DNA of 64,000 nucleotides, taken from contig NZ_CANNEZ010000003.1 in the NCBI RefSeq assembly GCF_947503795.1, positions 150,357-214,356 of the forward strand. Direction: 5' to 3'. The translations under genes and the position numbers were made by a program. This document shows, in pieces, positions 3,817 to 62,096 of the stretch. A model generated the notes under the pieces. It was not told where the DNA came from and ran no database searches. It saw only the letters and a program-made list of their open reading frames with translations. This DNA comes from an uncultured Jannaschia sp. (GTDB taxonomy: Bacteria > Pseudomonadota > Alphaproteobacteria > Rhodobacterales > Rhodobacteraceae). Numbering within the stretch: the first letter of the stretch is position 1; every line of letters starts with the position of its first letter.

Positions 3817-5078
3817 CCGACGCGACTGCACCCTCCGCGCCTCCCACGCCCGGAACACGGCGCCGCCCGCTCATGGCGCGCATAGACGTCATGGTCGTCC
3901 TCGCGGCGCTCGCGCTCCTGACCATCGCGGTCACGCTGATGGCCTCGGCCGGGCTCGTCTCGACCTCCTTCGTCAAGCTTCTGGGCAAGACGCTCTGCCT
4001 CTGCCTCGCCGCACTCGCCTTCGACCTGGTGTGGGGCTACACCGGCATCCTCAGCCTCGGACATTTCGCGTTCTTCGGGATCGGCGGCTACGCGATCGGC
4101 ATGTGGCTGATGTGGGACCGGACCGAGGGGATCGTCGCCGAGACGCTGGCCCGCGCGCCCCTGCCCCCGACACCCCTCGAACTCGAAGAGGCCATCGGCA
4201 CGCAGATCTTCGGCGTCGTCGGCTCGTCCGAGATCCCGTGGCTCTGGGCCTTCGCGTCGTCGCTGCCGCTGCAACTGGCCTTCGCGGTGCTCGTCCCCGG
4301 TCTCATGGCGTTGATCTTCGGCTGGCTGGCGTTCCGCAGCCGGGTCGCGGGCGTCTATCTCTCGATCCTCACGCAGGCGGGCACGCTGGCGCTGTCGCTT
4401 TGGCTCTTCCAGAACGACAGCGGCCTTCGCGGCAATAACGGCCTCTCGGGGCTGCAGAACATCCCCGGCCTCTCGGACGTGCCCCAGCGCGTCATCTCGC
4501 TCTGGTTCCTCTGGGCCTCGGCGCTGGCGCTGGGCCTCGGCTACCTCCTCGCGGTCTGGGTGGTCTCGGGCCGTTTCGGCTCGGTCCTGCGCGGCATTCG
4601 CGACGACGAGGCGCGGGTCCGGTTCCTTGGCTACGAGGTCGAGCATTACAAGCTCGCCATCTTCACCGGCACCGCAATGGTCACGGGGCTGGCGGGGGCG
4701 CTCTACTATCCGCAGGCGGGCATCGTGAACCCGGCCGAGATCGCGCCCATCGCGTCGATCTACCTCCCCGTCTGGGTCGCCATAGGCGGGCGCGGACGGC
4801 TCTATGGCGCGGTGATCGGGGCGGCGGTCGTGTCGCTGGCCTCGTCGTGGTTCACCGGCGGCGGCGCACCCGATATCGATCTCGGCTTCTACGAAATCCG
4901 CTGGACCGACTGGTGGCTCGTGCTGTTGGGCCTCAGCTTCGTGCTCGTCACGCTTTTCGCGCCCAAGGGCCTCGGCGGGCTGGTCGATCTCTGGACCGAC
5001 CGCCGCGCGGCGCGCACGCGCCAGGGCGATTTCGGACCGGATGTCGGATCACGACGAGCCGAGGAGGAACAGCCATGA
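3813..5078 (+). CDS. urtC: urea ABC transporter permease UrtC
   Basis: The in-frame GTG at 3813 overlaps the urtB stop (GTGA). An alternative ATG lies at 3873 (MARIDVMVVLAAL). LivM-type permease sequence. The upstream part of ORF 3318..5078 overlaps urtB and is not coding. Confidence 0.8.
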   Translation: MTDATAPSAPPTPGTRRRPLMARIDVMVVLAALALLTIAVTLMASAGLVSTSFVKLLGKTLCLCLAALAFDLVWGYTGILSLGHFAFFGIGGYAIGMWLMWDRTEGIVAETLARAPLPPTPLELEEAIGTQIFGVVGSSEIPWLWAFASSLPLQLAFAVLVPGLMALIFGWLAFRSRVAGVYLSILTQAGTLALSLWLFQNDSGLRGNNGLSGLQNIPGLSDVPQRVISLWFLWASALALGLGYLLAVWVVSGRFGSVLRGIRDDEARVRFLGYEVEHYKLAIFTGTAMVTGLAGALYYPQAGIVNPAEIAPIASIYLPVWVAIGGRGRLYGAVIGAAVVSLASSWFTGGGAPDIDLGFYEIRWTDWWLVLLGLSFVLVTLFAPKGLGGLVDLWTDRRAARTRQGDFGPDVGSRRAEEEQP

Positions 5079-40500: not shown

Positions 40501-40608
40501 CCGACCGACCTGCACGAAATGCCCACGGGTACGCCGTTGCCATCGGGCGCCGTCATCGAAGTGCCCCTCGGACCGTTCGAGATCGCGACGCTGCGCCTTC
40601 GGTTCTAG
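37555..40608 (+). CDS. glycoside hydrolase family 38 alpha-mannosidase (cytoplasmic)
   Basis: 1017 aa from MPERHHTWRF. GH38 N-terminal catalytic region HGIGHAHMDIAYLWT...GGMWVEPDLNIPG. No signal peptide. Confidence 0.85.
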   Translation: MPERHHTWRFTREKIATRLKLIEPMIHRRHLALPSLRLMPLTGPMIDAPICADPTGWPEIPPGTYWGGADLDFVLKTSFTVPADWKPEHLALHLPLGLSGDIFNHPEALLHIDRTPIGSADRYHHTVPLDDGLADGASHVVSLHGWTGLAGWPPDPDARAKLMMGTPALVQRCPATLAFHRLAETALDVATTLPRDDATARGLLDALDAAFLVLDTRDPMGERFYASVPDAMRCLEAGIAAAGPPRDEVLHGIGHAHMDIAYLWTVDQIRLKNARTYSNVLRLMEADPDYRFSHSQPALYEMTRQDYPEMFDAIRARVAEGRWEVMGGMWVEPDLNIPGPEALVRQLTLGRAWFAEMFGDVETPVLWLPDTFGFPGQVPQLMRQAGLDWFVTNKLNWNQINRVPFSTHHWEGIDGSRVLAHILTTPRPVQYLPFPTNYKSDLSAAEVLGTVTHAQGPATTGLPICYGYGDGGGGPTETLLEKARIMGGMPGMPRLRMSTVRDALAALETTPDLPIWHGEHYMEGHRGTFTSQGWIKRANRFAERALHEAEALSAMAGLAPDLTDAWRLLCLNQFHDILTGTSIGAVFEDAGRDYARLAEMTEAAATAAAARLAGAVPHVLNTCPTTGPRVALLPAEAAGQVTPDGTLRLLPDLPAYSVTALPEAATPDAPATITQDGTTHILANSQVELTVAANGQLLAVTDRVTGREILTDMPANRLLAFEDRPICWDAWDIDPHYEDRCEAIAAPAICEIVETGPVRVALRVTHNWRDSAIVQTIRLTAGSARIDFDTEVDWHERHILLKAAFPVALEADTALYDIQWGTIARATSRVSAFDAARFEVPAQKWAQLTDGSQAVALLNDCKYGHDTQGSTMRLTLIKSATSPDPQADQGAHRFTYALMPFPADRQDLLDHAAYDLNTPLRIIPAGGATAPGIAIRCDTPGVIVETLKPAFDGDGWTLRLFERLGHETEARITLDRPARSIQPTDLHEMPTGTPLPSGAVIEVPLGPFEIATLRLRF

Positions 40609-40940
40609 CTCGACCCCCGCGCCTGCGCCTCGGCGTCGAGACCGGCCCACCATTCCGCATACTCGGTGTTCCAGGGCGCCCGCCTCGTGACGTCCGGCGC
40701 ACCATCCGCCCACCAGACCGGACCCCGTTCGCCCAATCGGACCTTGGCATCCTGCACCCGCGCTCGCGCGGCCCGCATCGCATCGGGCCCATCGGCATCG
40801 CGGACCGCGCGGCGCGCCGCCATCAGGTCTCGCACGGCCGTCTGCCGCGCGTCCTCGGGCAGAGACGGGTCGGTCTTGCGCCAGAGGCGCGCCTTGGCCA
40901 CGAAATAGCGGCCGTCCGGGGTTTCGGGATAGTTCGGCAT
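40605..40940 (-). CDS. conserved hypothetical protein (111 aa)
   Basis: Start MPNYPETPDGRYFVAKARLWRK at 40940 within ORF 40605..41102. High GC3. No family recognised with confidence. Confidence 0.6.
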   Translation of the reverse strand: MPNYPETPDGRYFVAKARLWRKTDPSLPEDARQTAVRDLMAARRAVRDADGPDAMRAARARVQDAKVRLGERGPVWWADGAPDVTRRAPWNTEYAEWWAGLDAEAQARGSS

Positions 40941-40957: not shown

Positions 40958-41659
40958 TCACATCATGCGGATCACCTTCGGATCGAGTGCCAGCACATAA
41001 CCCTGCCGCGTGATGTTGCGGATCAGCAGATGGGTCACGATCTGGTTGCCCAGCGCGTCGCGCAGCCGTTTGATGCGCGTGGCCCCCGCCGCCTCCTCGC
41101 AATCGCTTTCGGGCTTGCCCGAGATCATCGCCTCGATCTGCGCGCCGGTCAGCATGTCGCCGTCCAGCCGCGCCTCGGCCAGAACCGACAATGTCTCCAT
41201 CGCCGCATCGGTCAGCTTCAGCTCGATATCGTTGAGCATCACCGCGTTCTCGGCCCGCGCCAGCACCAGCGACGTCACCTGGATGCCCGAGCGCTCGATC
41301 TCGCCCATCCGGCGGTTCAGCGTCACGATGGCCAGAAGCAGCACGACGCAGGCGATCAGCAGCGCGGTCGCGAAGACCAGCAGCACGAATATGACGGTCC
41401 GGTAGCTGGCCAGGACTTCGCCGAAGGCGGTGCCCGACTGGGCCAGAACCTCCAGAAGGCCGATCTCGGCGCGGGTGGTCAGGTCGGCTTCGACGAACAG
41501 GCGCTCGACGCGCATGTTGAACGCGTTGCCGTCGGGCAGCGTGGCGAACAGGAAGATCGCCGCCGCCGCCAGGATGACGACGATCGCGGCGATGCCGAAG
41601 CCCACGACCTTGGCCGAGGCCGCGCGCGTCTCAGTAACGGAGGAAGTATTCGCCGGCAC
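40958..41659 (-). CDS. membrane-anchored protein with two N-terminal TM helices and a C-terminal OmpR/PhoB-type winged-helix domain
   Basis: 233 aa. TM1 VVGFGIAAIVVILAAAAIFLFATL and TM2 TVIFVLLVFATALLIACVVLLLAIVTL. The C-terminus IELKLTDAAMETLSVLAEA...ATRIKRLRDALG...LIRNITRQGYVLAL fits the trans_reg_C pattern. GTG start; an alternative GTG lies at 41605. Confidence 0.65.
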   Translation of the reverse strand: MPANTSSVTETRAASAKVVGFGIAAIVVILAAAAIFLFATLPDGNAFNMRVERLFVEADLTTRAEIGLLEVLAQSGTAFGEVLASYRTVIFVLLVFATALLIACVVLLLAIVTLNRRMGEIERSGIQVTSLVLARAENAVMLNDIELKLTDAAMETLSVLAEARLDGDMLTGAQIEAMISGKPESDCEEAAGATRIKRLRDALGNQIVTHLLIRNITRQGYVLALDPKVIRMM

Positions 41660-41909
41660 TCTCTTCCCTTTCCTCGAGCCCGTCTGGGCCGAACACGGAC
41701 GTCACCTCGAGCAATTGCCAGCCGTCGCCCAGCCGGGCGGCGATGACTTCGGAGGCGGAGCCGATATCGCATCGGTCATCCGGCAGTTCGACCACACCGT
41801 AGTGCAGGCGCAAGGGGTCGTCCTGCTTTGCCTTGTAATCGGCATAGCACGCCGCCCAGCCCGGAGAGGCAAGGGCGAAGGTCAGGATCAGGGGAAGTGC
41901 GGGGTTCAT
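41631..41909 (-). CDS. small secreted protein (92 aa), unknown function
   Basis: Signal peptide MNPALPLILTFALASPGWAAC, two Cys, acidic C-terminus. It lies upstream of the winged-helix membrane protein gene and overlaps it. Confidence 0.6.
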   Translation of the reverse strand: MNPALPLILTFALASPGWAACYADYKAKQDDPLRLHYGVVELPDDRCDIGSASEVIAARLGDGWQLLEVTSVFGPDGLEEREESAGEYFLRY

Positions 41910-42066
41910 GCCTCCCTGATGGGGGATCGCGGCGCCGCAATCAATATCCGAGGCGATTCAGGGCGCGGCTATCCCATGACACCGCTCCGTTATTGAGGGA
42001 CCCGGCCGACCTGGGCGACGGACGGGGTGTCCGACCTCGAACCCCGACCGCGAAGGAGCCCTGCCC

Positions 42067-42594
42067 ATGATCCGCATTCTGACCGCCGCGATCCTGTCCG
42101 CCGCCATCGCCCTGCCTGCCACCACCGCCCCCGCCCGCGCCGATGCCGAGGACGTGGCCAAGGTGCTGGGCGGTCTCGCCGCGCTCTACATCCTCAAGGA
42201 GGCCGTCGAGCGAAACCGCGAACGCCGCGCCGCGCCCGTCGCCCGTGCGCCCGTCCACCAACCGGAATATTACAGCCATCGGCATTCCGGGCTCGGGGCC
42301 CACAGCCACCGTACCGGCACGGATCATACCCGCGCCCACCCCCATCGCGATCGGCCCCGGCAAGACCGCCGCAATGTCCGCGTCCTGCCCGAGCAGTGCT
42401 ACGTGACGCTGCGCACCGATCGCGGCCTCGTCTCGGGCTACGGCGCGCGCTGCATGCAGAACGCCGTCGCACGTCCCGGCGCGCTGCCGCCGCAATGCAT
42501 TCGACAGCTGCGGACCGACCGGGGTCCGCGCAACATCTACGGCCCGCGCTGCCTTGCGCGGGACGGCTGGTCTCCCCGCACCGCAAGGCGTTGA
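42067..42594 (+). CDS. secreted His-rich protein with tandem Cys-containing repeat, unknown function
   Basis: 175 aa. Signal peptide MIRILTAAILSAAIALPATTAPARA. His-rich stretch HQPEYYSHRHSGLGAHSHRTGTDHTRAHPHRD. Two ~30-aa repeats of the form LPxQC..LRTDRG...YGxRC. High GC3. Confidence 0.65.
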   Translation: MIRILTAAILSAAIALPATTAPARADAEDVAKVLGGLAALYILKEAVERNRERRAAPVARAPVHQPEYYSHRHSGLGAHSHRTGTDHTRAHPHRDRPRQDRRNVRVLPEQCYVTLRTDRGLVSGYGARCMQNAVARPGALPPQCIRQLRTDRGPRNIYGPRCLARDGWSPRTARR

Positions 42595-42641: not shown

Positions 42642-43259
42642 GTGTCGATCCTGCCCCCGCAATCCATTTACGAGCAGGCCGCCCGTGACCGCGGGGCGCG
42701 CGTCATCGTCGGGCTCGACGAGGTCGGTCGCGGGCCCTGGGCCGGGCCGGTCGTGGCCTGCGCCGCGCGCCTGATCGGGCCGCCCCCCGAGGGGTTGGAC
42801 GATTCGAAGAGATTGACCGCCCGGCGCCGCGAGGCCCTCGCGGCCCTCCTCGAGGCCTGCTGCGAGATCGGCTACGGCGAGGCGAGCGTCGCCGAGATCG
42901 ACACGCTCAATATCCGCGCGGCCACCCACCTCGCCATGGCGCGCGCCGTCGCGGCCCTCGGCACGCCGCCCGACCACCTGCTGATCGATGGAAACGACCG
43001 GCCCGGCTGGGTCGATTGTCCCCATACGCTCATCATAGGCGGCGACGGGCTCTCACCGTCCATCGCGGCGGCCTCGGTTCTGGCGAAAATAAGGCGGGAT
43101 CGGGGCATGGCGGCGCTGGCGCAACAGCATCCGGGCTATGGCTGGGAGCGGAACGCCGGATACGGCACGCGGCAACACCAGGACGGCCTCGCACAATACG
43201 GTGTGACGCAACATCATCGGCGTAGCTTCGCACCAATACGCAAGATGTTGTGTCAGTAA
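42642..43259 (+). CDS. rnhB: ribonuclease HII
   Basis: 205 aa with the GLDEVGRGPWAGPVVA active-site motif. GTG start. Confidence 0.9.
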   Translation: MSILPPQSIYEQAARDRGARVIVGLDEVGRGPWAGPVVACAARLIGPPPEGLDDSKRLTARRREALAALLEACCEIGYGEASVAEIDTLNIRAATHLAMARAVAALGTPPDHLLIDGNDRPGWVDCPHTLIIGGDGLSPSIAAASVLAKIRRDRGMAALAQQHPGYGWERNAGYGTRQHQDGLAQYGVTQHHRRSFAPIRKMLCQ

Positions 43260-43300: not shown

Positions 43301-44485
<1,185 letters not shown>

Positions 44486-45624: not shown

Positions 45625-45807
45625 TCAGTCCGAAGCGGCGGCGGCGGCCAGCAGGATCAGCGCCAGGATCGGAACGACGATGCCAGCGGACGAGGACGAG
45701 GTGTCCTCGACGATGACAACGGGCTCGACCGGAGCGGGCGCGATGTTGCCTGCGAAGGCGGTGGTGGCGGCGCCGGTCAGAACGGCGGCGAGAGCGAGTT
45801 TCTTCAT
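45625..45807 (-). CDS. tiny exported/anchored protein (60 aa)
   Basis: Start MKKLALAAVLTGAATTAFAG is preceded by a strong SD GGAGGATA. Ser-rich centre and hydrophobic C-terminal segment IVVPILALILLAAAAA. Confidence 0.6.
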   Translation of the reverse strand: MKKLALAAVLTGAATTAFAGNIAPAPVEPVVIVEDTSSSSAGIVVPILALILLAAAAASD

Positions 45808-45957
45808 AGTATCCTCCAAGATACGCCATCGGTGAGGCGACAGTTGCCACACCATATGGCACCCAAGACTGTACCTCGTGCAAGCTCGTTAAACAGTTAC
45901 GCGGGGCCAATGCAACGGGAAGTAAAGTGAATTCCTGTGTCCTCCCGGCAAGCTACG

Positions 45958-51230: not shown

Positions 51231-54200
51231 CTATTCCGCGGGGATCGCGCCCGCCTCCTCGGTCAGCGGGGCGGGCAGGTGGATCAGCATCTCCTTGGGG
51301 CAGATCTGCAGGAAGTGCCGCTTCTCGGTCTCCCAGTCCTGCAGGATCGCCCCGGCCTTGCGCGATCCGGTCTCGGCGCGGTGCCGTTCGACGAGACCGC
51401 GCAGCTCCGCCTCCCAATGCGCGACGGTGACGGGACAAGTCACAAGCGTTTCGGGGTTCATCAGGCTCGGGGCGACCCCGTCAGGGTCGTAGAGATACGC
51501 CATCCCACCGGTCATGCCGGCGCCGAAATTGGCGCCGATTTCGCCCAGGATGACGGCCACACCGCCGGTCATGTATTCGCAACCGTTCGAGCCGCAGCCC
51601 TCGATCACGACCTTCGCGCCGGAGTTGCGCACCGCGAACCGCTCGCCTGCCCGGCCCGCGGCGAAGAGATAGCCGTCCGTCGCACCATAAAGGACCGTGT
51701 TCCCGATGATGACATTGGCATCCGCCTTGAGCGGGGAGGCCATCGGCGGACGCACCACGACCGTTCCGCCGGAGAGGCCCTTGCCGACGTAATCGTTGGC
51801 GTCGCCCGAGACCTCGATCTTCATGCCGGGGGCCAGGAATGCGCCGAGCGACTGCCCCGCCGAGCCCTGAAGCTTGACGTGGAGGTGGTCGGGCTGGAGC
51901 CCGTTCCGCATCCCGAACTTCGACACGATATGGCTGGAGGTGCGCGTGCCGACCGTGCGGAGCGTGTTCTGCACCGCGTAGGACAGCTGCATCTTCTCGC
52001 CATCGTCGAGGAAGCGTTGCGCGTCCTGCACGATCTGCGCGTCGAGCGTATCCAACACCGTGTTGCGCGGCTTGGCGCGGTCGTATTCGATCCGGTCCGC
52101 GCCATCGACGGTGATCAGGAGCGGGTTCAGGTCGAGATCGTCCAGATGCGCGGAGCCACGCGAGACCTGCGTCAGAAGGTCCGCGCGCCCGATCACGTCG
52201 TCAAGCGACCGCGCCCCGATCTCGGCCAGGATTTCTCGCACCTCCTGGGCGTAGAAGGTGATCAGGTTCACGACCTTGTCGGCGGTGCCGGTGAACTTGG
52301 CCCGAAGCTCGGGGTTCTGGGTGCAGACGCCGACCGGACAGGTGTTCGACTGGCACTGGCGCACCATGATGCAGCCCATCGCGATCAGCGCGGCGGTGCC
52401 GATGCCGTATTCCTCGGCCCCCATCATCGCGGCCATGACGATGTCTCGCCCCGTGCGCAGCCCGCCATCGGTGCGCAGCGTCACACGGCTCCGCAGGTTG
52501 TTCATCGCCAGCACCTGATGCGCCTCGGTCAGGCCCATCTCCCACGGCAGGCCCGCATATTTGATGCTGGTCGCGGGGCTGGCCCCGGTGCCGCCGTTAT
52601 GCCCAGAGATCAGGATGACGTCGGCCTTGGCCTTGGCCACGCCCGCGGCGATCGTGCCCACGCCCGAGGACGCAACCAGCTTCACGGTCACCTTGGCCCG
52701 CGGGTTGATCTGCTTGAGGTCGTAGATCAGCTGCGCGAGGTCCTCGATCGAATAGATGTCGTGATGCGGCGGCGGCGAAATCAGCGTCACGCCCTTAGTC
52801 GAATGCCGCAGCCGCGCAATCAGGTCGGTGACCTTCATGCCCGGAAGCTGCCCGCCCTCGCCGGGCTTGGCCCCCTGCGCGACCTTGATCTCGAGTTCTT
52901 CACAATGGTTGAGGTACTCGGCCGTCACGCCGAAGCGTCCGGATGCCACCTGCTTGATCTTGGCCGAGGGGTTGTCGCCATTGGGCTCGGGGACGAAATG
53001 CGCCGGATCCTCGCCGCCCTCACCCGAATCCGACTTCGCGCCGATCCGGTTCATCGCCACATTGAGAAGCTTGTGTGCCTCGGGCGAGAGCGCGCCCAGC
53101 GACATGCCCGGCGTCACGAAGCGCTTGCGGATCGAGGTGATGCTCTCGACCTCCTCGATGGGGATCGACTTGCCCATCGGCTTGATCGCCAGCAGGTCGC
53201 GCAGATGGATCGGCGGGTTCGCCTGCATCGCGGCCGAGAACTGCTTCCAGAGCTCGAACGACCCCCGGTCGCAGGCCGCCTGCAGCATGTGCATCGTCTG
53301 CGCTTCCCAGGCGTGCTTCTCGCCCGAACGCCGCGCCTTGTAGAAGCCGCCGATGGGCAGGACGTTGGAGGTGCCCTGCCAGCCCTGCGCATGGACCTGC
53401 TCGGCCTTCCGCTGGAGGCCGGTCGTCCCGATCCCGGAAATCCGGCTCAGCATGCCGGGGAAATACTCGGCCACCATCGCACGGCTGAGACCGACCGCCT
53501 CGAAGTTGAGACCGCCGCGATAGGAGGAGATGACGGAAATCCCCATCTTCGCCATGATCTTGAGGAGGCCCGCGTCGATCGCCGCGCGATACCGGGCGAC
53601 CGCCTCGTCCAACGAGCACTCCAGAAGACCGCGTGAAATGCGATCGGCCAGGCTGTCCTGCGCGAGATAGGCGTTCACAGTGGTCGCGCCGCAGCCGATC
53701 AGCACCGCGAAATAATGCGGGTCGATGCACTCGGCCGAGCGCACGTTGATCGAGCAGAACGTCCGCAGACCCTTTCGCGTCAGCCAGGAATGCACCGCGC
53801 TGGTGGCCAGGATCATCGGCATGGCGACCTTGTCGTCACCTTGGAAGCGGTCGGTCAGGACGATATGGCCCGCACCCGACCGCACGGCATCCTCGGCCTC
53901 GGCCCGAATGCGCTCCAGCCCGTCGCGCAGCGCATTGGGCGCGCCGCCCGCCGGGAAGGTGCAATCGATGGTCGTCACCGAATCCTCGAAATGCTCGAAC
54001 ATCGCCTGGAACTGGGCGTTGCCGACAAAGGGGCTGTCGAGGACGAGGATCTCGGTCTGGCTGCTGTCCTGATCCAGCACGTTCTTGAGATTGCCGAACC
54101 GCGTCTTGAGGCTCATGACGCGGAATTCGCGCAGGCTGTCGATCGGCGGGTTCGTGACCTGGCTGAAGCTCTGACGGAAGAAGTGGCTGAGTGGGCGGTA

Positions 54201-55766
54201 CTTCTCGGAGAGGACCGCCGAGGGCGTGTCGTCACCCATGGACGCCAGCGTCTCCTTGCCGTCTTCGGCCATGGGCGCGAGAATCTGCTCCAGCTCCTCG
54301 ACCGAGTAGCCGGCGGCGACCTGTCGCGTGCGCAGTTCGGCCCCGTCATGGATCGCCGTCTCGGCGATGCCCTTGGTGACCTCCTCCAGATCGGTGATCT
54401 TCTCGACCCACTCCCCGAAGGGCAGCGTTGCGGCCAGCTCGTCCTTCAGCTCCTGATCGTGGAAGAGCTTGCCGGTCGTCATGTCGACCGCGATCATCTG
54501 GCCGGGCCCCAGCGCGCCCTTTTCGATCACCTTGGATTCGTCGACCGGCACCATGCCCGTCTCGGACCCCGCGATCAGGAGGCCGTCGCCCGATACGGTA
54601 TAGCGCATCGGCCGCAGGCCGTTGCGGTCCAGCCCCGCGCAGACCCAGCGGCCGTCGGTCATGGCCAGCGCGGCAGGACCGTCCCACGGCTCCATCACCG
54701 AGTTGCAGTAGGAATACATGTCGCGCCACGCCTGCGGCAGCTCGACCGCTTGTTGCGACCAGCTCTCGGGGACCAGCATCGTCTTGGCCATCGGCGCGTT
54801 GCGGCCTGCGCGCACCAGCACCTCGAACACCGAATCCAGCGCCGCGCTGTCACTGGCGCCCTGCGGCACGATCGGCTTGATGTCGCCTGCATGGTCCCCG
54901 AACGCGCCACCGGCCATCCGGATCTCGTGGGACTTCATCCAGTTGACGTTGCCCTTGAGCGTGTTGATCTCGCCGTTATGGGCGAGCATCCGGAAGGGCT
55001 GCGCCAGCCACCACTGCGGGAAGGTGTTGGTCGAATAGCGCTGGTGATAGATCGCGAAGGCGCTCTCGAACCGCTCGTCCTTGAGGTCGGGATAGAACTC
55101 GGCCACCTGCTCGGCCAGCATCATGCCCTTGTAGATGATCGACCGGCAGGACAGCGACGCGATGTAGAGCCCGCCGATCTGCGACGCGATGGCGGCCTTC
55201 TCGATCCGCCGCCGGATGACATAGAGCTCGCGCTCGAATGTCTCCTCGTCCACGCCCTTGGCGTTCGAGATCAGGATCTGCTCGATCTCGGGCCGGGTGG
55301 CGTTGGCCTTCTCGCCCAGCACCTCGATGTTCACAGGCACGTGCCGCCAGCCGTAGATGTAGTGCCCCATCCGCAGCACTTCGGTCTCGACGATCGTCCG
55401 GCAGGTTTCCTGCGCGCCGAAATCGTTCCGCGGCAGGAAGACCTGGCCCACGGCCAGCGCCTCGTCCCGGACGGTGTGGCCCGTGCGCGCGACCTGCTCG
55501 CCGAAAAACTTGAAGGGAATCTGGACATGGATGCCCGCGCCGTCGCCGGTCTTGCCGTCCGCATCGACCGCGCCGCGGTGCCAGATCGCCTTGAGCGCAT
55601 TGATCCCGGCCTGTACGACCTTGCGGGACTTCTTGCCCTTGATGTCGACAACGAGGCCCACGCCACAAGACGCATGCTCGGACTCTTCGTGATAGAGACT
55701 GGTCTCAGCCGTCTTTGCCCGCCGCGCCAGCTCGTCGCGCTCCCATTCGGTGAACCAATGCGTCAT
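51231..55766 (-). CDS. gltB: glutamate synthase large subunit
   Basis: 1511 aa from MTHWFTEWERDELARRA...EHASCGVGLV (Ntn amidotransferase Cys) with FMN and GXGXG domains. The upstream part of ORF 51231..56168 overlaps the GFA gene. Confidence 0.95.
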   Translation of the reverse strand: MTHWFTEWERDELARRAKTAETSLYHEESEHASCGVGLVVDIKGKKSRKVVQAGINALKAIWHRGAVDADGKTGDGAGIHVQIPFKFFGEQVARTGHTVRDEALAVGQVFLPRNDFGAQETCRTIVETEVLRMGHYIYGWRHVPVNIEVLGEKANATRPEIEQILISNAKGVDEETFERELYVIRRRIEKAAIASQIGGLYIASLSCRSIIYKGMMLAEQVAEFYPDLKDERFESAFAIYHQRYSTNTFPQWWLAQPFRMLAHNGEINTLKGNVNWMKSHEIRMAGGAFGDHAGDIKPIVPQGASDSAALDSVFEVLVRAGRNAPMAKTMLVPESWSQQAVELPQAWRDMYSYCNSVMEPWDGPAALAMTDGRWVCAGLDRNGLRPMRYTVSGDGLLIAGSETGMVPVDESKVIEKGALGPGQMIAVDMTTGKLFHDQELKDELAATLPFGEWVEKITDLEEVTKGIAETAIHDGAELRTRQVAAGYSVEELEQILAPMAEDGKETLASMGDDTPSAVLSEKYRPLSHFFRQSFSQVTNPPIDSLREFRVMSLKTRFGNLKNVLDQDSSQTEILVLDSPFVGNAQFQAMFEHFEDSVTTIDCTFPAGGAPNALRDGLERIRAEAEDAVRSGAGHIVLTDRFQGDDKVAMPMILATSAVHSWLTRKGLRTFCSINVRSAECIDPHYFAVLIGCGATTVNAYLAQDSLADRISRGLLECSLDEAVARYRAAIDAGLLKIMAKMGISVISSYRGGLNFEAVGLSRAMVAEYFPGMLSRISGIGTTGLQRKAEQVHAQGWQGTSNVLPIGGFYKARRSGEKHAWEAQTMHMLQAACDRGSFELWKQFSAAMQANPPIHLRDLLAIKPMGKSIPIEEVESITSIRKRFVTPGMSLGALSPEAHKLLNVAMNRIGAKSDSGEGGEDPAHFVPEPNGDNPSAKIKQVASGRFGVTAEYLNHCEELEIKVAQGAKPGEGGQLPGMKVTDLIARLRHSTKGVTLISPPPHHDIYSIEDLAQLIYDLKQINPRAKVTVKLVASSGVGTIAAGVAKAKADVILISGHNGGTGASPATSIKYAGLPWEMGLTEAHQVLAMNNLRSRVTLRTDGGLRTGRDIVMAAMMGAEEYGIGTAALIAMGCIMVRQCQSNTCPVGVCTQNPELRAKFTGTADKVVNLITFYAQEVREILAEIGARSLDDVIGRADLLTQVSRGSAHLDDLDLNPLLITVDGADRIEYDRAKPRNTVLDTLDAQIVQDAQRFLDDGEKMQLSYAVQNTLRTVGTRTSSHIVSKFGMRNGLQPDHLHVKLQGSAGQSLGAFLAPGMKIEVSGDANDYVGKGLSGGTVVVRPPMASPLKADANVIIGNTVLYGATDGYLFAAGRAGERFAVRNSGAKVVIEGCGSNGCEYMTGGVAVILGEIGANFGAGMTGGMAYLYDPDGVAPSLMNPETLVTCPVTVAHWEAELRGLVERHRAETGSRKAGAILQDWETEKRHFLQICPKEMLIHLPAPLTEEAGAIPAE

Positions 55767-56224
55767 GGGTCGTCTCCTTCGACGAAAAGCGAACGGGCCT
55801 CGTATTCGGCGCGCGTCGCGGTTGCATGGTCGCCGGCGAGCCGCGCATAGGCGGGCGCCCGGTCGATATAGATCTCGGAGATCAGCGGGAAATCGGCGGC
55901 GGCCGCGAAGACCCCCGGCGCGAATTCGTATTCCGCATCCCCGTCGGTGTCGCGGAACCACAGATGGCTGCCGCAGGTCGGACAGAAGGCCCTCTCGGCA
56001 AATTTCGAGGAGGCATAGGTCGCGACGGCCCCGGTCACGGTGACGCCTGCGGGATCGGCGGCGAACCCGCCCTGTACCACGCCGGACCAGCGCCGGCACA
56101 TCGCGCAATGACACGCACCGACAGCCGCGACATGGGGGCCGTCCACGGTGATCTGCACGTCGCCGCACAGGCAGCGTCCGTCCAGACGGCCGACCCGGCG
56201 ATAGGGGGTGACATCGACGCTCAT
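55763..56224 (-). CDS. GFA (glutathione-dependent formaldehyde-activating/CENP-V) family protein
   Basis: 153 aa with the Cys pattern CLCGDV...CHCAMCRRWSG...CPTCGSHLW typical of GFA. ATGA overlaps occur at both ends. Confidence 0.8.
   Translation of the reverse strand: MSVDVTPYRRVGRLDGRCLCGDVQITVDGPHVAAVGACHCAMCRRWSGVVQGGFAADPAGVTVTGAVATYASSKFAERAFCPTCGSHLWFRDTDGDAEYEFAPGVFAAAADFPLISEIYIDRAPAYARLAGDHATATRAEYEARSLFVEGDDP

Positions 56225-62009: not shown

Positions 62010-62096
<87 letters not shown>

Follow-up and report, generated by a model that had tools for sequence, protein, structure and literature searches.

Can an OmpR/PhoB-type winged helix that lies behind its membrane anchor, at the C-terminal end of the protein, act as a one-component transcription regulator, and if so, what would it read and control? 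This question is raised by three genes in a stretch of 64,000 nucleotides (nt), here called the window, from an uncultured Jannaschia sp. (Rhodobacterales; assembly GCF_947503795.1, contig NZ_CANNEZ010000003.1, positions 150,357 to 214,356 of the forward strand): gene A, which encodes a small exported protein, gene B, which encodes a membrane protein ending in a winged helix, and gene C, which diverges from the A-B pair and encodes a protein with four Cys residues. The original prediction, made from the sequence alone, had described them as a minimal transmembrane regulator with a periplasmic co-sensor and a likely target gene, possibly metal- or redox-related. Our results are compatible with a model whereby the three genes form a Rhodobacterales-specific module around the one-component transmembrane regulator B, which, with A as its periplasmic partner, would control the divergent pair of transcription units in response to an envelope input; whether this model is correct we judge to be evenly balanced.

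The three open reading frames (ORFs) and the 157-bp gap between the divergent genes were found in the ORF list where they had been claimed to lie, and the homologue numbers of all three proteins establish that these are real genes and not chance ORFs. Gene A has 1,627 homologues and gene C has 70 direct homologues, while for gene B 7,986 of the 8,000 scored candidates match at E<=0.001, the best 120 of them being 213-244 amino acids (aa) long. The closest homologues of gene B are from Jannaschia (93% identity), which places the window on a Rhodobacterales chromosome.

The architecture proposed for B, a receiver-less protein with two transmembrane segments (TM1 and TM2) and a C-terminal OmpR/PhoB-type winged helix, was recovered by hydropathy, by family matches to the Pfam domain Trans_reg_C (PF00486) and by structure comparison. 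Hydropathy and an AlphaFold2 (AF2) model agree on the order N-terminal tail, TM1, 46-aa loop, TM2 and winged helix. The net charge is +1 in the N-terminal tail and -3 in the loop, and an Arg-rich positive stretch follows TM2; by the positive-inside rule, this charge bias around the hydrophobic segments points to an N-in, loop-out, C-in topology. Trans_reg_C gives a sub-threshold match to residues 146-223 of the window protein (profile positions 3-77 of 77, E=6e-4) and matches 25 of 26 homologues at E<=0.01 (best E=2.7e-6), several homologues carry precomputed PF00486 matches, and databases already label the family automatically as winged helix-turn-helix or OmpR/PhoB-type domain proteins. The winged-helix motifs pointed out in the 233-aa protein are present, and no Response_reg match was found in it; NCBIfam response-regulator models align only with residues ~106-223, far under their cut-offs. 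In the AF2 model, TM1 is followed by two periplasmic helices and by TM2, which runs on as a helix into the cytoplasm; strands at 131-148, helices at 151-166, 172-180 and 189-219 and strands at 223-232 then give, with moderate model confidence, the winged-helix layout of an N-terminal beta-sheet, three helices and a C-terminal hairpin wing. When this model was compared with the PDB by Foldseek, the best ~45 matches were all OmpR/PhoB DNA-binding domains (probability ~1, E 0.02-1, root-mean-square deviation ~3 A over 75-80 columns, TM-score ~0.55-0.6 relative to the target), including those of ArlR, GlnR, RpaA, CovR, PhoB on DNA, SaeR, YycF and CadC.

The gene B family is narrow. Among 1.84 billion representatives clustered at 50% identity, only 193 match at E<=0.001, most of them fragments and none of them a response regulator. 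The 80 best genome loci with gene B all belong to Rhodobacterales; genome stretches that encode a relative number at least 582. Identity across the order is 64-93%, and the whole architecture is retained by the full-length members that diverge most (41-47% identity; one of them is from Amylibacter). In an alignment of 26 sequences, the periplasmic loop (LPDxNAFNxRVERxF...LLExLAQSGTxF), the recognition helix (AAGATRIKRLRD / EAAGATRIKRLRD) and Cys187 are invariant, and the module as a whole is under strong purifying selection. Cys187 is a cytoplasmic residue just before the recognition helix (DC[DE]EAAG); in two of the 80 loci, those of HLUCCO18 (L042) and Roseicyclus (L049), it is replaced by Ala.

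The genes are also kept together in the related genomes; of the observations named beforehand as refuting the prediction, neither a lack of the fold nor a lack of synteny turned up. Gene A lies directly upstream of gene B in 79 of 80 Rhodobacterales species loci, and in 76 of these 79, as in the window, the end of gene A (stop codon included) and the beginning of gene B overlap by exactly 29 nt. Gene C has a positional orthologue of like layout in ~75 of 81 loci, and both the divergent four-Cys gene and the operator-like region that separates it from the regulator operon are conserved. Farther out on the divergent side follow rnhB (77/80 loci) and ccrM (74/80), which are conserved neighbours only, a functional link to the module being unsupported. 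No gene downstream of gene B is conserved in the related loci, which delimits the unit to C and the divergent A-B pair. Because of the overlap, the C-terminal tail of A and the N-terminal tail of B share bases in two frames, and translation of the two genes may be coupled. The overlap much exceeds the usual 1 or 4 nt. In two Roseovarius loci (L056 and L065, ~4708-4968), gene A is C-terminally truncated to 81-85 aa without the YFLRY tail and no longer overlaps gene B, which is intact.

Gene A had been predicted to encode a small secreted protein with two Cys residues, and its leader and its Cys pair bear this out. The N-terminal hydrophobic leader ends in AxA and is followed by a conserved mature start, (A/E/D)CYADYKAKQDxPLRLHYGV, by the second conserved Cys and by the tail AGxYFLR[YF]; C21, C47 and 21 other alignment columns are invariant. 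AF2 predicts a beta-beta-alpha-beta-alpha fold (mean pLDDT, the predicted local distance difference test, 81.5; core >90), for which structure comparison with the PDB found no relative, a sequence-profile search of the PDB nothing useful and a Pfam search with the window protein no match at E<=10. The name DUF4177 carried by some UniRef homologues was rejected, since none of 32 family members match that domain at E<=1. A lipoprotein assignment ([LVI][ASTVI][GAS]C lipobox) was likewise rejected: the Cys is often preceded by E or D, L, V or I is seldom found at position -3, and the leaders close with AxA.

Gene C conforms less well to its first description. Its N-terminal hydrophobic leader closes with a conserved APARA and is followed by a loop of 7-12 aa and a second hydrophobic helix (VLGGLAALYIL in the window, GGLAAxxxxG in the family) with a median of 15 uncharged residues and 11 in the window. 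Then come a basic His/Arg linker, which varies in both length and composition, and a C-terminal domain whose four Cys, arranged in two repeats (LPxxC...Y..RC), are invariant. Neither Pfam nor a sequence-profile search of the PDB yielded a relative of the protein. The part past the second helix is very basic (median net charge +17), which makes export, and with it the label "secreted" given to the 175-aa protein, doubtful; the four-Cys part may instead be cytoplasmic, in a hairpin or type-I anchored protein. The window protein has eight His besides its four Cys, and the His count of its positional orthologues ranges from 1 to 27, so that His-richness is no family trait and the hint at metals drawn from it is not supported.

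The region between the divergent operons holds conserved elements that have not been reported before. We aligned the 170 nt before gene A from 81 loci and took a census of the resulting patterns over 832 kb of related DNA in 10-kb neighbourhoods. Motif A, CAATAWCG-N6-TGTTATCnGATAWCAG in the family, consists of a half-site and box 1, a 13-bp palindrome GTTAT-N3-ATAWC (box 1 consensus TGTTATCnGATAWC); on the minus strand of the window it reads TCAATAACGGAGCGG-TGTCATGGGATAGC, with the half-site AATAAC, 8 nt and the palindrome of box 1. Motif B (box 2) is a second copy of the palindrome, GGATATTGATTGCGG in the window and GGTTATTGAATAWC as the family consensus; the Jannaschia-like form of box 2 (TGTCATTGCCTG / TGTCATTGCATG) also occurs in the two loci with Ala at residue 187 of B. 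The palindrome pattern gave 184 strand matches in 62 loci; every one of them falls within the 200 nt before gene A, and the rest of the 832 kb has none (chance expectation estimated at ~1-2); no further copy of the box was found in the rest of the window. The distance between boxes 1 and 2 is 32-33 bp in 48 loci, 21-22 bp in six and 42-43 bp in three, or three, two and four helical turns, respectively, spacings that would be expected if proteins sit on the same face of the DNA.

The same elements have a fixed relation to the start of gene A. Motif B holds a -35-like hexamer (TTGAAT in the family, TTGATT in the window), and a CAnnnT follows 17-18 nt on and a start codon another 6-7 nt later. 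In 72 of 82 loci, the distance from the TTG of motif B to an in-frame start codon is 35-38 nt. This fixed distance suggests that the gene A mRNA is leaderless or near-leaderless in most roseobacters. Leaders in Cereibacter, Tabrizicola and Pseudorhodobacter are 20-45 nt longer, and that of Cereibacter contains an AGGAG Shine-Dalgarno sequence. In 53 of 78 loci (background 6%), a mirror unit towards gene C is formed on the other strand of the motif A half-site (GTTATTGCCT, 18 nt, CAnnnT, 5 nt, CATC); in the window it is degenerate. The conserved elements overlap -35-like hexamers in both of these promoter-like units, which lie back to back; a generic scan for sigma-70 promoters and terminators returned nothing relevant and did not call the proposed promoters. 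In sequence, TGTTAT/TGTCAT, the half-sites are similar to the ones read by PhoB (TGTCA) and ArcA (TGTTA), and PhoB-type activators bind at the -35 position.

Several known site classes were considered and set aside for this region. CtrA boxes (TTAA-N7-TTAA) occur in none of the 81 upstream regions, and the motifs fit neither the CenR motif TGA-N8-TGA nor any of the iron or manganese boxes known from alpha-proteobacteria, such as ICE, RirA/Iron-Rhodo (TGA-N9-TCA), Mur and MntR, nor the IscR box. A methylation link to the neighbouring ccrM through GANTC is not supported; in the window, such a site (GATTC, 41955-41959) lies between the two boxes and near ccrM, and it is probably incidental because GANTC is found in only seven of the 81 related upstream regions. 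In a metagenome scan for box 1 (TGTTATCnGATATCA), one of the 120 matches listed is the module and the others are mostly chance matches in low-GC DNA; eight other matches with a G+C fraction >=0.55 lack the flanking motifs, and the scan is uninformative on the regulon.

A possible input comes from R. sphaeroides 2.4.1, where we assigned the orthologues by gene order and length: RSP_1471 (465 bp) is gene C, RSP_6002 (291 bp) gene A and RSP_1472 (705 bp) gene B, and the module sits between rnhB (RSP_1470) and nspC (RSP_1474). By sequence, the gene order in Cereibacter changlensis is the same, and both motifs are present there. RNA-seq of a cenK deletion mutant shows RSP_1471 up by log2 4.93 (~30-fold; false discovery rate (FDR) 8e-5) and RSP_1472 up by log2 1.03 (FDR 0.0014), and in a cenR(D56A) mutant RSP_1471 is up by log2 1.10 (PMC9275681). 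The cenK mutant has an envelope defect with sensitivity to detergent and polymyxin, and in the text of the CenKR supplements, some of it partial, RSP_1471 and RSP_1472 appear only in RNA-seq file 9 (PMC9275681). A literature search for the three locus tags found no paper naming them in its text, and as far as we could find the module has not been studied. A few genes beyond ccrM in Cereibacter (L081, 1-1017; RSP_1464-1465 in R. sphaeroides) are dciA and a gene for a DsbA-family thioredoxin-fold protein, the expression of which also changes in CenKR mutants.

In our model, B would be anchored in the inner membrane by its helical hairpin with the winged helix in the cytoplasm directly after TM2. 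A would be translated from the same mRNA as B, coupled to it by the 29-nt overlap, and exported as an alpha/beta protein of 70 residues with a conserved Cys pair; it may serve as periplasmic partner or co-sensor of the B loop. As a symmetric dimer, B would bind the phased palindromes and the extra half-site in the intergenic region and thereby control its own operon as well as gene C, the product of which would be a basic four-Cys protein associated with the membrane. Among possible inputs, envelope state is the most likely one. Inverted repeats fit B because a parallel dimer in the membrane is two-fold symmetric. More speculatively, the module may constitute an order-specific envelope-stress pathway in which two palindromes, in helical phase at a pair of back-to-back and partly leaderless promoters, are read by the winged-helix dimer with its hairpin anchor, either directly from the membrane or after proteolytic release, with A as the sensing subunit and C as the output. 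Such a pathway would be a Rhodobacterales counterpart of Cpx- or Rcs-type surveillance with a domain order not described for ToxR-like regulators, and in this extended form we regard the proposal as doubtful.

Several observations weigh against the model. DNA binding by B, on which it depends, is something that we infer, and OmpR-family domains usually read direct and not inverted repeats. Although the homologues match Trans_reg_C, the window copy scores 20.2 bits, below the gathering cut-off of 26.2 bits. The full-length AF2 model is of low confidence (mean pLDDT 65.7), the family profile found nothing among PDB sequences at E<=1, and an hhalign comparison with one approximate PhoB sequence gave a weak E=0.11, with the expected register of IKRLRDAL on IRRLRKAL and QGYVL on TGYRF. 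The linker from TM2 to the winged helix has only ~12-17 residues, so that DNA would have to be held very near the membrane. The wing residues of B were not seen to covary with the box variants. Finally, the module genes are non-essential in R. sphaeroides: transposon insertions are found in all three orthologues (at 18, 18.5 and 32 sites) and are tolerated there; ccrM next to them has none.

Some of these points would be accommodated if another transcription factor bound the palindromes and B acted elsewhere, or if, in an envelope complex with A and C, its winged helix contacted proteins instead of DNA. Classical dimeric helix-turn-helix (HTH) or ribbon-helix-helix (RHH) repressors, more so than OmpR-type domains, typically go with inverted repeats that have a 3-bp spacer, and the sub-threshold Pfam score, the empty PDB sequence searches, the missing wing-box covariation and the very short linker would all speak for such an arrangement. 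We nevertheless consider it unlikely, given that the boxes are confined to the module locus in the 832 kb, which fits a local regulator encoded alongside them, that the recognition helix of B, like the boxes, is conserved, being invariant in the 26 aligned sequences, and that the fold of B matches DNA-binding domains exclusively, several of them solved on DNA.

The short linker bears on a further alternative, that B is a latent membrane-tethered factor whose loop is cut first and TM2 second, so that the winged helix is freed, while A shields the loop much as TcpH shields TcpP. A two-TM hairpin around a short, highly conserved extracytoplasmic loop would suit such a mechanism, DNA binding at the membrane would be awkward with so short a linker, and the aromatic tail of A could, speculatively, be a protease or PDZ ligand. 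With no protease gene linked to the module, and with palindromic sites already accounted for by a symmetric membrane dimer, we think it quite improbable that B works in this way. Least supported, and in our view very improbable, is a metal- or redox-sensing module with a His/Cys-rich secreted C as metal-binding target, for which speak the eight His and four Cys of the window protein, the invariant Cys of A and C and that of B in the 26 sequences, and against which stand the His range of the gene C orthologues, intergenic motifs unlike all the metal boxes named above, a basic C-terminal part that is unlike a simple periplasmic metal binder, and the Ala at residue 187 of B in two species.

The coordinates of the module, of its candidate control elements and of its conserved neighbours are collected in Table 1. 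Farther neighbours in the window are genes for a GH38 alpha-mannosidase, an ABC ATPase, a pyridoxal phosphate (PLP) enzyme and a YkuD L,D-transpeptidase. Directly downstream of gene B lies an ORF of 111 aa (MPNYPETPDGRYFVAKARLWRK..., 40605-40940, minus strand) without a Pfam match, which at its 3' end shares 4 nt with the convergent GH38 alpha-mannosidase gene; it was rejected as a module member, as only one of 80 related loci (L004) has it at that position. A 76-aa ORF at 45625-45855 (minus strand; no Pfam match), with its probable start at an internal MKKLALAAV, combines a signal-peptide-like start with a hydrophobic C-terminal segment and may encode a small envelope-anchored protein. A very long ORF of 1,645 aa occupies 51231-56168 on the minus strand. 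An Rfam scan of the window matched only two tRNAs (127-200 and 62010-62093, plus strand) and nothing in the module region.

Table 1. Positions of the module genes, candidate control elements and conserved neighbours in the window.
Feature	Position	Strand	Description and basis
Gene B	40958-41659	-	233 aa, GTG start; predicted hairpin membrane protein with C-terminal OmpR/PhoB-type winged helix, without receiver domain
Gene B, winged-helix coding	40982-41284	-	Residues ~126-226; Pfam and Foldseek
Gene B, TM2 coding	41321-41398	-	Residues ~88-113; hydropathy and model
Gene B, predicted periplasmic-loop coding	41399-41536	-	Residues 42-87, ~46 aa; invariant columns, charge, two model helices
Gene B, TM1 coding	41537-41608	-	Residues ~18-41; hydropathy; model helix 8-40
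Overlap of gene A stop and gene B start	41631-41659	-	29 nt
Gene A	41631-41909	-	92-aa exported protein, two Cys
Divergent intergenic gap	41910-42066		157 bp
-10-like hexamer CATCAG	41916-41921	-	17 nt past the -35-like hexamer, 6 nt before the gene A ATG
Motif B / box 2	41935-41949	-	Upstream alignment, regular-expression census
-35-like hexamer TTGATT, inside motif B	41939-41944	-	Start-codon geometry
Motif A (half-site and box 1)	41968-41996	-	Upstream alignment, regular-expression census
Gene C	42067-42594	+	175-aa four-Cys protein, divergent
rnhB (RNase HII)	42642-43259	+	Pfam; conserved neighbour
ccrM-type methyltransferase	43376-44485	+	Pfam; conserved neighbour

Among known systems, B comes closest to ToxR/ToxS and TcpP/TcpH of Vibrio cholerae and CadC of E. 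coli, in which a receiver-less winged helix of the OmpR/PhoB type is likewise tethered to the inner membrane. The likeness would extend to a one-component path from periplasm to promoter and to a small periplasm-exposed partner encoded in the same operon. Like these regulators, B combines a DNA-binding domain and TMs in one polypeptide with neither a receiver nor a kinase domain. In contrast to them, with their N-terminal winged helix, single TM and periplasmic domain, B has a C-terminal winged helix after a two-TM hairpin, a 46-aa loop in place of a periplasmic sensor domain, a linker of ~12-17 residues instead of tens, and no detectable sequence relationship outside the domain; its partner A, unlike those of the ToxR and TcpP systems, is soluble, exported and encoded upstream with the 29-nt overlap. 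With its domain order inverted, B would work like the ToxR/CadC class but is not a member of that family proper. A census of transmembrane transcription regulators found most of them to be single-pass (PMC10269533).

Other known systems share parts of the proposed arrangement. With the OmpR/PhoB-family response regulators PhoB, ArcA and CenR, B has in common the effector fold and the RxxRLR signature of the recognition helix, and its candidate sites resemble those generally known for this family in having half-sites of the TGTCA/TGTTA kind and one site overlapping a -35 hexamer; unlike them, B lacks a receiver and a linked kinase and is membrane-anchored, and its candidate sites are inverted, not direct, repeats. 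SREBP and RseA-sigmaE resemble B in the two-TM hairpin around a short extracytoplasmic loop and the cytoplasmic regulatory domain, but there the DNA-binding domain precedes the first TM helix, whereas in B it follows the second and no protease is linked. CpxP beside CpxA offers a precedent for what we propose for A, namely a small exported protein encoded next to a membrane sensor that it may modulate and with expression tied to envelope perturbation; the folds of CpxP and A are unrelated, and the sensor B would itself be the transcription factor.

What is new here is a three-gene unit found across an order, together with its 29-nt overlap and putative coupling, its phased palindromes, its promoter geometry and its connection to a mutant with an envelope defect. 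Most of the well-studied regulators of envelope stress are missing from alpha-proteobacteria (PMC9275681), and the module is present in hundreds of Rhodobacterales species, R. sphaeroides as a model organism and the abundant marine roseobacters among them. Since a candidate operator is defined, the genes are non-essential in a genetically tractable host and one inducing condition, the loss of cenK, is known, the hypothesis is directly testable. If true, it would add a second topology to the transmembrane transcription regulators, in which a membrane hairpin is followed by a C-terminal winged helix, and it could show how an OmpR-type domain reads inverted repeats.

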